Shown here one piece after another: positions 39,741-57,347 of a stretch of DNA of 64,000 nt. The position numbers were made by a program, and so were the translations under genes. Location of the stretch: NCBI GenBank assembly GCA_031701365.1, contig GCA_031701365.1_4118.1. One strand, given 5' to 3'. This DNA comes from Escherichia coli. GTDB taxonomy: Bacteria; Pseudomonadota; Gammaproteobacteria; Enterobacterales; Enterobacteriaceae. The notes under the pieces were generated by a model that worked only from the letters and a program-made list of their open reading frames with translations, was not told where the DNA came from and made no database searches. The first letter of the stretch is position 1. The number at the start of each line of letters is the position of its first letter.

Positions 39741-40046
39741 ATGGAAGACAATGGAATGAAATTTGATATGTTTGAAGGTGTACCAGAGTTCGATTTCAAC
39801 AAACTTGAAGAAGGTGAGGAATCAGAACTAGTTAGTGTTACACTTAAAGCAGATTCTAAAAAGAAATATTCATCATCAGTACGTTCACGTTCACAAGAAG
39901 AATACGAAACATTTATTGAAAGTATTCATTATGAAACATTCCATCACGCAGATGGAACTCCATATGAAGTACGTGTAACAGTACTGAAGCCTGAAGTAAA
40001 TCCAATGGAAAATCTACGTCCTGTTTACTGCTGGGCAAGTCACTAA
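39741..40046 (+). CDS. hypothetical protein
   Basis: ORF with AAAGGA RBS. Confidence 0.6.
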   Translation: MEDNGMKFDMFEGVPEFDFNKLEEGEESELVSVTLKADSKKKYSSSVRSRSQEEYETFIESIHYETFHHADGTPYEVRVTVLKPEVNPMENLRPVYCWASH

Positions 40047-40054
40047 TAAACCAA

Positions 40055-40086
40055 AGGACGGGATTTGTTATCTCGTCCTTTTTTTG
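40055..40086 (+). terminator. rho-independent terminator
   Basis: AGGACG-loop-CGTCCT followed by TTTTTTT. Confidence 0.65.
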
Positions 40087-40097
40087 TCTGGAGATGT

Positions 40098-40952
40098 ATG
40101 AAACTTTATCTAATCGTTGACTACAATAAGGATTATGCTGGTAACTTCACCGAAGATTCGGATGGATATTGCACATCGACTAATGTCAATGTACGTAGCA
40201 GTAGTGCTCATGAACATGAATCTTGTAAAAATCTAAAAGATTTTATCGCATACCGAGCATTTGAAAAGAACTTCTGCCGCAGTAGATATTCGAAGTTTGA
40301 GTACCCGTTAATTGATGTTCCTGATGATTTAATGTTCCAGTTAATGCTGACTGGAGTTCAAGATTATGATTACATAGCGTATAATCATATTACTAAGAAA
40401 ATTTATATTGGTACATCATCACATGACACTTCTATGTATGCATCATGCCCAGATGATCGAATGAATGATAGAAAATCATACTATAGTGGGTCAGTTGGTT
40501 TAAATGATTCATTAAATAAAAATTCATTCTTTGAGTATGTTTATGATTACCATCATGAGAAAAAAGAACGTGAAGATTACTGTATAGCAATTGATAGTAC
40601 TAATGGTTATGAAGACGTGAAAGAAGCACTTATGCCGTACATTATTGAAAAGTACTACAAAGATTTTCAGTACTGTAGTAATTTTCTAATCAGAAATTCT
40701 ATTATAATCGGTCGCCAATCTAGTGCATACTCTCAGTACTACAACGATTCACCAGTAGCATCGGCAAATGAAATGTGTGATATTTTACAAATTCCACGTG
40801 AAGATATGACATTTATTTTTACGTCTTTTATTGAAGATGATGAGTTGTATATTAAAAATAAACACCGTTTCATGCCAAGCAAGATTGAGGTTATTCGAAG
40901 TTTTAGTGTTGATATACTAACAAATTTCACAGAAAAAACCGAATATAACTGA
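40098..40952 (+). CDS. hypothetical protein
   Basis: ORF 40065-40952, start ATG 40098 after GGAGA; family B-like DDLMFQLMLTGV. Confidence 0.6.
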   Translation: MKLYLIVDYNKDYAGNFTEDSDGYCTSTNVNVRSSSAHEHESCKNLKDFIAYRAFEKNFCRSRYSKFEYPLIDVPDDLMFQLMLTGVQDYDYIAYNHITKKIYIGTSSHDTSMYASCPDDRMNDRKSYYSGSVGLNDSLNKNSFFEYVYDYHHEKKEREDYCIAIDSTNGYEDVKEALMPYIIEKYYKDFQYCSNFLIRNSIIIGRQSSAYSQYYNDSPVASANEMCDILQIPREDMTFIFTSFIEDDELYIKNKHRFMPSKIEVIRSFSVDILTNFTEKTEYN

Positions 40953-40981
40953 GACAAATGATAAGTTAATGATATAATATA

Positions 40982-41015
40982 AGGTGACAACATAATATGT
41001 TAGTCACCTTTTTTA
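40982..41015 (+). terminator. rho-independent terminator
   Basis: AGGTGAC-loop-GTCACCT followed by TTTTTT. Confidence 0.65.
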
Positions 41016-41629
41016 ATCCTGAAAGGTTCCCATAAGGAAATGATTAAAAGCCTAATCCACTCGAAAATGTAGAGGGTAGATGAGTAGTCCTTTCAGTACG
41101 AACAGCAGATGAAACCCGTTAGATGATGGCATAGTTTGAACCACTCACGGCAATGCGGCTGTATAAAGAACTCCAATAGGATAAAGAGAGTTCCTCGATA
41201 GACATATAAGGATCGCACCTTACCAATTATCTAAGGGAGATTTCATAAGAAATATGCGGTCGGAATTATACAATATAGTTGCGTCCAAATTTTGTGAAAT
41301 CAAATACAAGTACTGGTCATATGGTATTTGTATTATGTGTCGGGATGTTTAAGACCGACGACCGTTGCTACAAGAACCGCGATAGAGAGAAACAGAGCAA
41401 CCCGCTTTCGTCTCGTAAGAGAATTCGTGATATGAACTATGTGAAGGCCACCAGCGTCAAATTTTTTTGTTCTTTCCCCTGCGGGGGGATGAAATATGCT
41501 CAAGCAAACCCCGTCAATATTAATTAAAAGAAAATAGTACTTGTAGAATTAAACATGCGTAGCATGATAATTCTACTGATGTTGATGCAATCAACGTCAC
41601 GTATATTCATTGATGTTTCCATAGGAATA

Positions 41630-42175
41630 ATGATGGCATTTATTAGAAAAGAAAAAACTGTTACTTATAAAACTTTGAATTTTGATGATTGCATTAATCA
41701 ATCACAAGACGAAGATATCTTTACTGGATATGTGGTTATTAAAGAAAAAGGATGCATTTCTTATATAAAGGAATTACAAAATGGAATTGAAGTGACTTCA
41801 GTTAAATTACTTCCTACTCAAAAACCAACAATATCAAAAGCCCAGTATGGTAATTATTTTGAAGAAAGATATAGTAATAATTCAATAAGTGTTAAGGCTC
41901 ATATTATTAAAGGAGAACTAGAAGGAGAATATAGAAAATACAACCCACAAGGAAAATGTGTTTGGGTTAAATACTTCAATTCAGGATATGATGTAACATC
42001 TGAAATTATAGAATTCTTGGGTTTAAAATGTACCCCTGAGACTATTCATGATTACAAGTTCAATACTGAAGAAGAGTTTAATCTGATGATGCGTTACGGT
42101 TCACATTTTAAATTTTTATATGAATATAACATTGACAGTAGTACTTTTGATAAGATAGTACACAACTGTCTCTAA
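41630..42175 (+). CDS. hypothetical protein, possibly MORN-repeat-like
   Basis: ORF 41555-42175, start ATG 41630 after AGGA; repeats such as GEYRKYNPQGKCVWVKYFNSG. Confidence 0.45.
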   Translation: MMAFIRKEKTVTYKTLNFDDCINQSQDEDIFTGYVVIKEKGCISYIKELQNGIEVTSVKLLPTQKPTISKAQYGNYFEERYSNNSISVKAHIIKGELEGEYRKYNPQGKCVWVKYFNSGYDVTSEIIEFLGLKCTPETIHDYKFNTEEEFNLMMRYGSHFKFLYEYNIDSSTFDKIVHNCL

Positions 42176-42191
42176 CAAAAGGAATTATATA

Positions 42192-42713
42192 ATGTCGAAG
42201 AAGGATGCTTCGAAAAAACATTCAGTACATTTCAGTACTGGAAAGGACAACTGGACAACTCCCAAAGATTTCTTTGAAGATTTGGATGAGTTATGGGGAT
42301 TTACACTTGATGCTGCTTGTGTTGATGAGACTGCATTGTGTGATAACTATTTTACACCTGATGATAATTCTCTTGAACAAGACTGGGGAAAAAATATTGT
42401 TTGGTTAAATCCCCCATATAGTGATTTAAAAACTTGGTTAGCCAAGGCAGTAGATGCGTATAATAAAGGTGCTACAGTACTGATTCTAGTACCATCCAGG
42501 ACTGATACAATAGCATTTCAGGAATATGCAGCCAAAATATGTGATTGTATTTGTTTTATCAAAGGTAGATTACGTTTTGGTATTCCAGAAGAACCTGATA
42601 AGAAAACAGATTCAGCACCATTTCCTTCGTGTCTTATAGTCCTTGATAAGTACCTCACTACTGCTAAAATTAATTATCTTAAATCTCTCGGATTGGTGAT
42701 GAAGAATCTATGA
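42192..42713 (+). CDS. phage Dam-type DNA N6-adenine methyltransferase
   Basis: DNWTTP, FTLDAAC and NPPYS motifs typical of the small phage N6-adenine MTase family. Confidence 0.75.
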   Translation: MSKKDASKKHSVHFSTGKDNWTTPKDFFEDLDELWGFTLDAACVDETALCDNYFTPDDNSLEQDWGKNIVWLNPPYSDLKTWLAKAVDAYNKGATVLILVPSRTDTIAFQEYAAKICDCICFIKGRLRFGIPEEPDKKTDSAPFPSCLIVLDKYLTTAKINYLKSLGLVMKNL

Positions 42714-46785: not shown

Positions 46786-47050
46786 AGTTCTTATTGCTGA
46801 AACAATGAAGATGATTTACTTTATTACTACGGCACAGGATTTGTCTTATCCAGTAAAATCGTTACTTAGGTCAATGTATCTTGATATTGTAAAAGAATAT
46901 TATAAATCTAAACACAGAAGCATTATTAGTGTTTATCGTGATTATGAAAGGATTCGTATTTTATTCTGGAACAAGAATCGAGTACGTTCTGAATGTGATC
47001 TAGTAGATTTTAAATTAGAGAATCTTTATTGCTATAAACAGGGACAATAG
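46766..47050 (+). CDS. family C-like small protein 8
   Basis: ORF 46748-47050, start ATG 46766 after AAGGA. Confidence 0.5.
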   Translation: MTNTTNEVLIAETMKMIYFITTAQDLSYPVKSLLRSMYLDIVKEYYKSKHRSIISVYRDYERIRILFWNKNRVRSECDLVDFKLENLYCYKQGQ

Positions 47051-47108
47051 TCTAATTCATGATATAATAATGGGTAAGGAACAATAATTAACACAAGGAG
47101 TGTGTGAA

Positions 47109-54506: not shown

Positions 54507-54812
54507 ATGGATATACAAACATTCAATAAGCTAAAGTACTATGATAATGGTTTTGCATTAATAATTAACGAACTTGATGGGATACCATACGAATATCATA
54601 ATCAATTAATGAAGATAGTAAAATGTATATGTGAAGAATTAAAAAGTATGTTTAAAAATGAATATGTTTATGATTTAGGTAATAGTAGCAAAAAACTATA
54701 CATAAAGAAATTCTGGGGAACGCATTGTGGTTTAATGGTCGATTTAGGTTTAAGTTTAGACGATAATTCTGAATCATGTTCATTATATATAGATGAAATG
54801 CGAATATCATGA
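54507..54812 (+). CDS. hypothetical small protein
   Basis: ORF. Confidence 0.5.
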   Translation: MDIQTFNKLKYYDNGFALIINELDGIPYEYHNQLMKIVKCICEELKSMFKNEYVYDLGNSSKKLYIKKFWGTHCGLMVDLGLSLDDNSESCSLYIDEMRIS

Positions 54813-54869
54813 GACGTATCAGAATTCGGTGATATAATTTGATTACATCACCAATGTGGAGAAGTTGAA

Positions 54870-56603: not shown

Positions 56604-57347
56604 ATGAAACATTTCTTAGAAGTAACCGTACCTGATGATAAAGATTTATACATTGTAGGTGATTTGCATGGTAATGGTAAACTATGGGATGCTACAGTGA
56701 AAGAATTTGGTATTACACACAATGATTATGTTTTCAGTGTAGGTGATATTATCGACCGTGGAGAACAAAATTCAAAGCTCCTTTTTGAATTTTTGTTCGG
56801 AGAAAATCGTTACATGATTGCGGGTAATCATGAGATGATGTGCGTTGATTCGGAAACACTTCGAGATTGGTATCATTGTTGGATAAGTAATGGTGGTGAT
56901 AAATTCCTTGATGAAGTTGGAGGAACAGGCATTCAATTCTTTCGTCAGTACTTAAAAGATCTCCCTATGATTATCCAAATCAATCACCGAGGCTTGAAGA
57001 TTGGGTTAGTTCATGCTGGAGTTCCGTTGGAATATACAACATGGGAACGATTTGTTAATGGGACAAAATCACTTAGTGCTGATATAATTGATAAGTGCTT
57101 GTGGGATAGGAAAACATTCGATTATTGTAGAACGAATAATACCTATTATGCACCTAAGTTAGATGGAGTGCATTGTGTCTTTAGTGGACATACAGCAGTT
57201 ACTGATCCACTCATTTATGGTAATCGCATTTGGATTGATAGTCAATTCTTGACGGGTGACTTAACTCTCGCTACTCCACAAAGTGGTGGGATGAGATACT
57301 TACGTAAAGAAAAAGATGAGTACTCATTCAATCGTTTCAAAAGGTAA
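56604..57347 (+). CDS. Ser/Thr protein phosphatase (PPP/lambda-phosphatase-type metallophosphatase)
   Basis: GDLHG, GDxxDRG and GNHE motifs; ORF 56589 with start ATG 56604 after GGAG. Confidence 0.8.
   Translation: MKHFLEVTVPDDKDLYIVGDLHGNGKLWDATVKEFGITHNDYVFSVGDIIDRGEQNSKLLFEFLFGENRYMIAGNHEMMCVDSETLRDWYHCWISNGGDKFLDEVGGTGIQFFRQYLKDLPMIIQINHRGLKIGLVHAGVPLEYTTWERFVNGTKSLSADIIDKCLWDRKTFDYCRTNNTYYAPKLDGVHCVFSGHTAVTDPLIYGNRIWIDSQFLTGDLTLATPQSGGMRYLRKEKDEYSFNRFKR

Follow-up and report, generated by a model that had tools for sequence, protein, structure and literature searches.

The DNA analysed here, referred to below as the window, is a stretch of 64,000 nucleotides (nt) from an Escherichia coli assembly (GCA_031701365.1, contig GCA_031701365.1_4118.1). 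The whole window is ~99.7% identical to the Escherichia jumbo phage 121Q, a 348.5-kb RaK2-like myovirus (genus Asteriusvirus). Our subject is a 602-bp gap in it (40953-41554), which lies between the upstream open reading frame (ORF) gp415, ending at 40952, and the next long ORF, gp416, starting at 41555. Both neighbours match only PHROGs of unknown function. The segment 40900-41650 is 99.7% identical to 121Q (KM507819.1, 192692-193443), and the corresponding gp415/gp416 interval is unannotated in the 121Q record. We report that the gap carries one copy of a family of large pseudoknotted RNA genes not described before.

A first-pass annotation of the window had described the region as a gene-free stretch of about 600 bp, apparently richer in G+C than the surrounding DNA, with local hairpins, no tRNA-like signature and no convincing ORF. 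All of this was borne out. G+C content was 0.38-0.44 in intervals spanning 41000-41599, compared to 0.27-0.345 in intervals covering 40500-40999 and 41500-42199; GC skew was positive on both sides of the gap, without inflection. The hairpin noticed near 41480 is CCCCUGCGGGGGG at 41475-41488, which is conserved in all 50 aligned copies described below, with stem changes from G-C to G-U only. The ORF at 41279-41527, which has a TTG start and encodes 82 amino acids (aa), had no counterpart in the same position, strand and frame in any of 49 homologous copies, and we judge it spurious. The longest ORFs of the copies were scattered (median 64.5 aa), and conserved blocks contain indels whose length is not a multiple of three, both in an alignment of the four 121Q paralogues and in the larger alignment A2. 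A protein-coding gene was rejected on these grounds: no ORF is shared among the 50 copies, and the frame is broken within conserved blocks.

Alignment A2 comprises 50 non-redundant copies, with pairwise identities below 96%. RNAalifold applied to A2 returned 57 base pairs, 35 of them with compensatory changes, and missed helices P1, P9 and P11 and all pseudoknots. A first automatic helix scan was too noisy owing to G-U pairs, and the helices were therefore curated by hand and then tested. The curated structure has 15 helices and 80 pairs, arranged in two domains with at least two pseudoknots. Of the A2 cells covered by these 80 pairs, 95.2% were paired, compared to 74.0% after shuffling (0/500 shuffles reached the observed value) and 37-44% when the register was slid by 1-3 columns. 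Double changes were present in 779 cells (211 when shuffled, 72-131 in slid registers), the covariation score was 0.541 (0.181 when shuffled, at most 0.118 when slid), and changes on both sides were found in 64 of the 80 pairs. Covariance analysis against related phages, proposed by the first-pass annotation as a check, thus revealed a conserved structure. The alignment also indicates which strand folds. G-U cells (247) outnumber A-C cells (52), and therefore the folding strand is the plus strand; pairing was 95.2% on the plus strand and 90.1% on the minus strand.

Helix coordinates in Table 1 are window positions mapped from A2. The 5' domain contains junction sequences that are invariant, among them CUAAGGGAG at 41231-39. 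In the 3' domain, helices P11, P12 and S2 are 100% paired in 50/50 sequences, each with several pair types. The pairing between the P9 loop and a strand ~110 nt downstream is 99.7% paired, and all seven of its pairs have changed on both sides. The invariant junctions may mark tertiary contacts, or else a core for binding or catalysis. Between the two domains lies a variable insert that only some copies have; its module is carried by other copies at a second site within the P13 loop, and copy C of 121Q has it at both sites. The module of ~25 nt, (U)GUACAAUAUAGAUCCGUCC with AAAUUU/AAAUUU flanks, thus has two alternative insertion points (A2 columns 417-450 and 587-620). It contains the palindrome UGUACA and behaves like a portable structural module.

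Table 1. Features of the RNA gene in the window, the spurious open reading frame within it, and the four copies of the family in phage 121Q
Feature	Position	Strand	Remarks
Promoter	40951-40978	+	-35-like GAGACA 40951-40956; extended -10 TGATATAAT 40970-40978; 10/12 in consensus scan, TG ahead of -10; begins upstream of the nominal gap start, overlaps stop codon of gp415
5' hairpin plus U-run ("terminator")	40981-41016	+	between promoter and RNA core
5' domain	41017-41240	+	P1, P1a, P2, P3, P4, P6
P1	41019-26/41089-96	+	double changes in 7/8 pairs
P1a	41027-30/41037-40	+	5' domain
P2	41052-62/41072-79	+	double changes in 7/8 pairs
P3	41102-06/41158-62	+	100% paired; double changes in 4/5 pairs
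P4	41116-19/41147-50	+	5' domain
P6	41168-73/41188-93	+	double changes in 6/6 pairs
Variable insert	41241-41302	+	module UAUACAAUAUAGUUGCGUCC 41267-41286
3' domain	41303-41437	+	P9, P10, P11, S2, P12, P13; two pseudoknots
P9	41303-13/41324-34	+	loop 41316-22 pairs with 41430-36 (pseudoknot)
P10	41339-42/41356-59	+	3' domain
P11	41364-68/41397-41401	+	crosses S2 and P12 (second pseudoknot)
S2	41385-89/41405-09	+	crossed by P11
P12	41378-82/41425-29	+	crossed by P11
P13	41412-14/41419-21	+	3' domain
Linker	41438-41469	+	conserved CCACCAGCGUCAAA 41448-41461; seven-U run 41462-41468; columns invariant or near-invariant
3' module	41470-41518	+	hairpin UCCCC-UGCG-GGGGG 41475-79/41484-88; conserved GCAAACCCCGUCAA 41505-18
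Downstream hairpin	41543-41576	+	-13.7 kcal/mol, z -4.37
82-aa ORF	41279-41527	+	TTG start; judged spurious
Copy A	121Q 192.8-193.3 kb	+	window copy
Copy B	121Q 90.3-90.8 kb	+	after sigma-factor gene
Copy C	121Q 247.5-248.0 kb	+	small minus-strand ORF gp516 annotated inside
Copy D	121Q 326.6-327.2 kb	+	between minus-strand genes

The functional unit begins upstream of 40953, with its promoter. The layout GRGACR/TGAAAC ... TGnTATAAT precedes 50/50 aligned copies and its TATAAT columns are invariant; the -35-like box reads GRGACR in the 121Q-type copies and TGAAAC in the others. A second promoter class of this kind has been described in phage CBB, and also in GAP32, as "divergent RpoD-like", with TGAAACG plus TATA; in CBB it lies mostly upstream of DNA-synthesis genes (PMC5259590). 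The promoters of the RNA genes match this class. Three further promoters of the form GRGACR-N(12-15)-TGATATAAT were seen on the plus strand of the window (47041-47068, 54811-54838 and 57060-57088), and the extended -10 motif TGnTATAAT occurs 14 times on the plus strand of the window and once on the minus strand.

The strong terminator that the first-pass annotation had placed at the edge of the region is a real hairpin. It spans 40981-41010 and is followed by six U (-13.9 kcal/mol, z -4.24, with 0/200 shuffles as stable). As a boundary it did not stand: it is located downstream of the unit's own promoter, between promoter and RNA core, and is therefore part of the unit. A hairpin plus T-run is found at the same place in seven aligned copies from other genomes, the positional orthologues of the window copy, with stems that differ and compensate (GGACGAUGC/GCACCGUCC, GGACAGUA/UACUGUCC and GACAGC/GCUGUC). 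An eighth copy keeps the hairpin (GGGGUAAAGG/CCUUUACCCC) and has a short T-run. Since the hairpin is kept at the same site with compensating stems, we regard it as a conserved part of this paralogue. It would probably block read-through from the gp415 operon, and it may attenuate or stabilise the RNA's own transcript. A further strong hairpin of intrinsic-terminator type (40053-40081, plus strand; 12 pairs and then a T run) directly follows an ORF ending at 40046; it extends over the initial bases of the gp415 ORF at its listed start.

At the other end, the unit probably runs beyond 41554, through the hairpin at 41543-41576 that overlaps the nominal start of gp416. Hairpins with a CGAAGUGA-type loop are found at the same relative place after the 3' module in other copies, and the hairpin in the window is probably their counterpart and a member of the RNA unit. 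In several copies another terminator follows the 3' module at a distance of ~250 nt. In other genomes, the copies numbered #2, #3 and #4 by their place in the genome (see below) have an extra hairpin before the U-run of the linker, which gives it the look of an intrinsic terminator; the window copy lacks it. The RNA may accordingly end ~470 nt or ~750 nt from its start, depending on the copy. The two nominal start codons of gp416, at 41555 and 41565, are both inside the hairpin 41543-41576, and an ATG near 41626-41629 with AGGA ahead of it looks better. Because the PHROG profile match of gp416 begins only at residue 17, this ATG is probably the true start. The deposited gp416 start is then probably too far upstream, and the non-coding stretch is nearer 670 bp.

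Searches with a 539-bp core matched RaK2-like jumbo phages exclusively, in 71 records; in a phage collection, 62 jumbo-phage records matched. The hosts of the matched phages are Escherichia, Salmonella, Klebsiella, Erwinia, Yersinia, Serratia, Cronobacter and Pectobacterium, and two phages are deposited as Xanthomonas phages. Core identity was 66-76% in distant genera, the locus was mostly unannotated, and each record contained four or five separate matching places. No second copy was found within the 64-kb window by blastn with a word size of 7. Phage 121Q has four copies (Table 1), all on the plus strand, 69-80% identical to each other and each in an otherwise empty gap of 600-840 bp. The record of phage UE-S1 annotates a plus-strand terminator after copy D and a "repeat_region" within it. 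Several phage records fill the RNA gaps with 3-6 small "hypothetical proteins", and gp516 of 121Q (51 aa, 247799-247954, minus strand), which lies wholly inside copy C on the opposite strand, is probably spurious. A second unannotated gap of 121Q, of ~2 kb (135194-137161), follows tandem paralogous ORFs of ~60 aa and is unrelated in sequence to the RNA family.

Copy numbers in viral contigs were determined by pattern scans plus a profile search, in which nhmmer recovered every copy. Most complete jumbo contigs of this group other than 121Q, including CBB, GAP32, BF and Yen9-04, have five copies, always on one strand; one metagenomic contig of 360 kb has four. The CBB copies are located at 32, 94, 174, 258 and 336 kb, with near-identical positions in GAP32, BF and Yen9-04. 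Phage RaK2 itself carries a strongly diverged syntenic copy (E 3e-37), upstream of the same unknown gene, a dam methylase and a cytidylyltransferase. When the copies were compared with each other, they clustered by genome position (#1 to #5) across genera and not by phage. The duplications therefore predate the genera, and each copy has been separately maintained. The copies are also more evenly spaced than expected by chance, at intervals of 52-84 kb. A smallest interval this wide has a probability of 0.002-0.005 in CBB, GAP32 and BF; for Yen9-04 it is 0.0006-0.02, by linear or circular treatment of the genome. Since CBB, GAP32, BF and Yen9-04 are syntenic, these values amount to a single observation. 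Spacing in 121Q is less even (P 0.05-0.08).

The element also occurs outside the jumbo phages, in chromosomal islands of Enterobacterales. A scan of one bacterial genome per species identified nine contigs with the element, in eight of which the copy covers almost the full profile (E 1e-82 to 1e-101); in Serratia sp. L9 it is partial (E 1e-57). These contigs are from Citrobacter amalonaticus, two Serratia, Enterobacter chinensis, Buttiauxella, Silvania and two Enterobacteriaceae assemblies, and one is a short contig in a metagenome-assembled genome (MAG) labelled Clostridium. Among complete E. coli genomes, 2 of 5426 have a copy, in an unannotated gap of an island adjoining ffs. A metagenome scan added ~15 further diverged copies. 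A search of 72,556 plasmid records gave no homologue, and sequenced temperate phages had none either, the matches in the phage collection being jumbo-phage records only.

The bacterial loci have a recurrent gene order: an integrase (of the large serine or the tyrosine type) and, in the same orientation, the RNA; then a convergent cI-like S24 repressor and a cro-like protein, and further on a conserved 286-aa protein without family, an LprI-like protein and a resolvase. No virion genes were seen in the 7-8 kb visible on either side of the island copies. As far as these contexts extend, they have the appearance of small integrative islands carrying a cI/cro switch. The island promoters resemble the phage one (TGAAAC ... 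TATACT/TATAAT), and in the Citrobacter island the motif TGAAAC ... TGGTATAAT stands in two tandem copies ahead of the RNA. A KwaB-like protein of the Kiwa system (Pfam E 7e-38) is encoded on the minus strand ~4 kb from the RNA copy of one island, on a 232-kb metagenomic contig (ERZ773156) where bacterial-type genes flank the island. Genes of the island in E. coli LR-29-1 include DUF4326, DUF488 and dual-OB. In one Enterobacteriaceae MAG a thiamine pyrophosphate riboswitch (73.5 bits, minus strand) is located ~1 kb from the island RNA copy; the RNA is therefore near host sequence related to thiamine, and no integrase gene separates the two.

The ~286-aa protein is a possible functional partner of the RNA. 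It was always found 0.45-1.7 kb downstream of the island RNA copies (6 loci), even where the cI/cro pair was missing, and it matched no family in Pfam, PHROG, PADLOC or NCBIfam. No homologue of it was found in the 121Q sequence covered (~87%, with 186.7-215 kb represented by the window only) or at the other jumbo-phage loci searched. None of the island neighbours had a homologue beside the phage copies, and PADLOC and NCBIfam were uninformative.

Comparison with known RNAs gave no relatives. Rfam 15 at the gathering score returned no family match across the whole window, and a search of 40850-41700 up to E=10 gave only chance-level matches (terminator-like small RNAs and small nucleolar RNAs). 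No Rfam family matched at the RNA element in the island copies or in a GAP32 copy, and ARAGORN found no tRNA or transfer-messenger RNA (tmRNA) in the 64-kb window. Scans of these kinds had been recommended by the first-pass annotation, and its suggestion of a small stable RNA, as in T4-like phages, came out half right: covariation supports a structured RNA, and the parts "small" and "T4-type" failed, the RNA being ~0.5-0.6 kb long, pseudoknotted and without relation to any Rfam family. A tRNA, a tmRNA and a T4-type small stable RNA were rejected on the basis of zero ARAGORN genes and no relevant Rfam match. A group I or group II intron was rejected as well, since there was no Rfam match and the flanking ORFs are complete, unrelated genes. 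No description of the RNA family was found in the open-access full-text literature, to which the search was confined, and a large screen for structured RNAs across viral genomes lists no candidate longer than 151 nt.

The closest likeness is to ROOL and GOLLD, large ornate RNAs of phages and prophages that have Rfam families and structures determined by cryo-electron microscopy (cryo-EM) (PMC12286853). These are non-coding RNAs of 0.5-0.8 kb with many helices, pseudoknots and strongly conserved junctions, carried by phages and integrated elements and without a known partner protein. The new RNA resembles them in size and complexity, with a core of ~500 nt, 15 covarying helices, 2 pseudoknots and a distribution over 62-71 jumbo-phage records and islands. 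This is resemblance and not membership: neither covariance model matched 40850-41700 at up to E=10, nor the whole window at the gathering score, nor the island or GAP32 copies. Other properties differ too. The hosts here are Enterobacterales, whereas ROOL and GOLLD are mainly found in Firmicutes and in rumen and lake organisms. ROOL and GOLLD often adjoin tRNA genes; here there are none in the 64-kb window, and the tRNA cluster of 121Q, at 72-78 kb, is away from all four copies. The presence of 4-5 diverged paralogues per genome is not a described trait of ROOL or GOLLD. ROOL and GOLLD also form homo-oligomeric RNA-only assemblies, a trait on which the new RNA may or may not agree with them.

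A second parallel is offered by phage PA5oct, of a related jumbo-phage lineage, in which RNA sequencing (RNA-seq) defined four plus-strand long non-coding RNAs (lncRNAs) of 236-619 nt in ORF-free gaps, two of them highly expressed (PMC7318152). One of these is located between minus-strand genes, like copy D of 121Q. However, lncRNA001-004 have no sequence similarity to the new family (nhmmer --max, best E=1.1), lack its invariant core motifs GACCGT, ACCCGC, CGGCAAT, TAAGGGA and GATGAG, with only short generic strings recurring in them at chance level, and are not similar to each other. Because neither sequence nor motif is shared, we treat PA5oct as an analogy and not as evidence of expression.

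We conclude, with a probability of about 0.85, that the gap is an independent structured RNA gene whose product acts as RNA, and not a spacer, a leader or a protein gene. During infection each copy would be transcribed by host RNA polymerase, possibly phage-modified. The RNA would fold into a compact two-domain particle and act in trans as RNA. It might be a scaffold that assembles by itself or the RNA component of a ribonucleoprotein, the roles considered for ROOL and GOLLD. That it works in a ROOL/GOLLD-like trans-acting mode is a tentative proposal by analogy, to which we give somewhat less than even odds. An unlikely variant concerns the islands: the RNA, in five evenly spaced and separately maintained phage copies, would be a cis- or trans-acting element needed by phage replication or genome handling, and an island copy, with its phage-type promoter, would switch on at infection and either hijack the phage, as in a satellite, or jam it as a decoy, as an RNA-only defence. 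The kwaB gene ~4 kb from the RNA in one island is noted in this connection.

Several observations speak against an independent RNA gene of this kind. Transcription, transcript ends and stability of the RNA are all deduced from the DNA. The terminator-like hairpin immediately after the promoter in this copy might end most transcripts early. The position of the RNA 3' end is uncertain, and a terminator-like hairpin precedes the conserved 3' module in many copies. The minimum free energy of the 505-nt core gave a z of only -1.18, with 14/100 shuffles as stable; the argument is therefore carried by covariation and not by thermodynamic stability. Kinship among the aligned sequences inflates the shuffle control, a weakness from which the slid-register control is free. 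The ROOL/GOLLD analogy draws on size, complexity and phage association only. Moreover, a trans-acting RNA gives no reason for the copies to be evenly spaced.

The spacing would be accounted for if the copies were replication origins, and five of them along 350 kb would fire the genome evenly. Such an origin would use a structured primer RNA that stays in a persistent RNA-DNA hybrid and acts in cis, as at T4 oriF/oriG or in ColE1 RNA II. Those are promoter-driven transcripts of a few hundred nt, and T4 has several per genome. Genes for a T4-like replisome, RNase H and a UvsW-like helicase are present in the phage, every copy has the same strand, a G-run is found near the RNA 3' end, and the integrative islands, which themselves need replication, carry one copy each. 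The promoter class, found mostly ahead of DNA-synthesis genes in CBB (PMC5259590), fits as well. Yet the spacing is one independent observation, which 121Q follows less closely, and the GC skew has no inflection. G+C is higher in the region (0.38-0.44) than beside it (about 0.3), with no AT-rich unwinding element downstream of the promoter. Pseudoknots and invariant junctions are not expected of a primer, and the structure is far more elaborate and conserved than in the T4 and ColE1 cases. Terminator-like hairpins stand in many copies, and the plasmid records contain no homologue. We consider an origin improbable, though it is the main rival reading.

The order of promoter, structured region, terminator-like hairpin and ORF is also the classic layout of a cis-acting leader, a giant riboswitch or attenuator that would control the downstream gene. 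The window copy has no strong terminator before the next ORF, and its hairpin covers the nominal start of that ORF. The genes downstream differ between copies, however, and copy D is on the plus strand between minus-strand genes, so that opposite-strand genes follow it; neither fact suits a leader or riboswitch. A convergent cI-like repressor comes after the island copies, and the size and pseudoknot number are beyond any known leader. A leader is very unlikely in our judgement. Still harder to credit is that the copies have no RNA function at all, being either a decayed gene or a DNA-level repeat that serves recombination, packaging or the organisation of the genome. A multi-copy, evenly spaced element in a single orientation would suit a DNA site, and the UE-S1 record labels part of copy D as a repeat. 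But compensatory changes keep the pairs, including long-range pairs and pseudoknots, the asymmetry between G-U and A-C points to a single-stranded molecule of the plus strand, the promoter is conserved before every copy, and no ORF remnant is common to the copies. Direct tests thus contradict the leader, the DNA-site and the coding readings alike.

Large, intricately folded non-coding RNAs are rare, and the known classes (RNase P, group I and group II introns, tmRNA, OLE, ROOL and GOLLD) each taught new biochemistry. In ~60 deposited jumbo-phage genomes the loci of this family are blank or filled with spurious small ORFs. The RNA is found in cultivable phages of E. coli, Salmonella, Cronobacter, Erwinia and Serratia, which makes genetics, RNA-seq and cryo-EM feasible. 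With 4-5 paralogues per genome that diverged long ago, the copies might have non-redundant roles or form a hetero-assembly, and the sharing of the RNA between virulent jumbo phages and islands that bear defence genes points to a role in conflict between phage and host or between phage and satellite.

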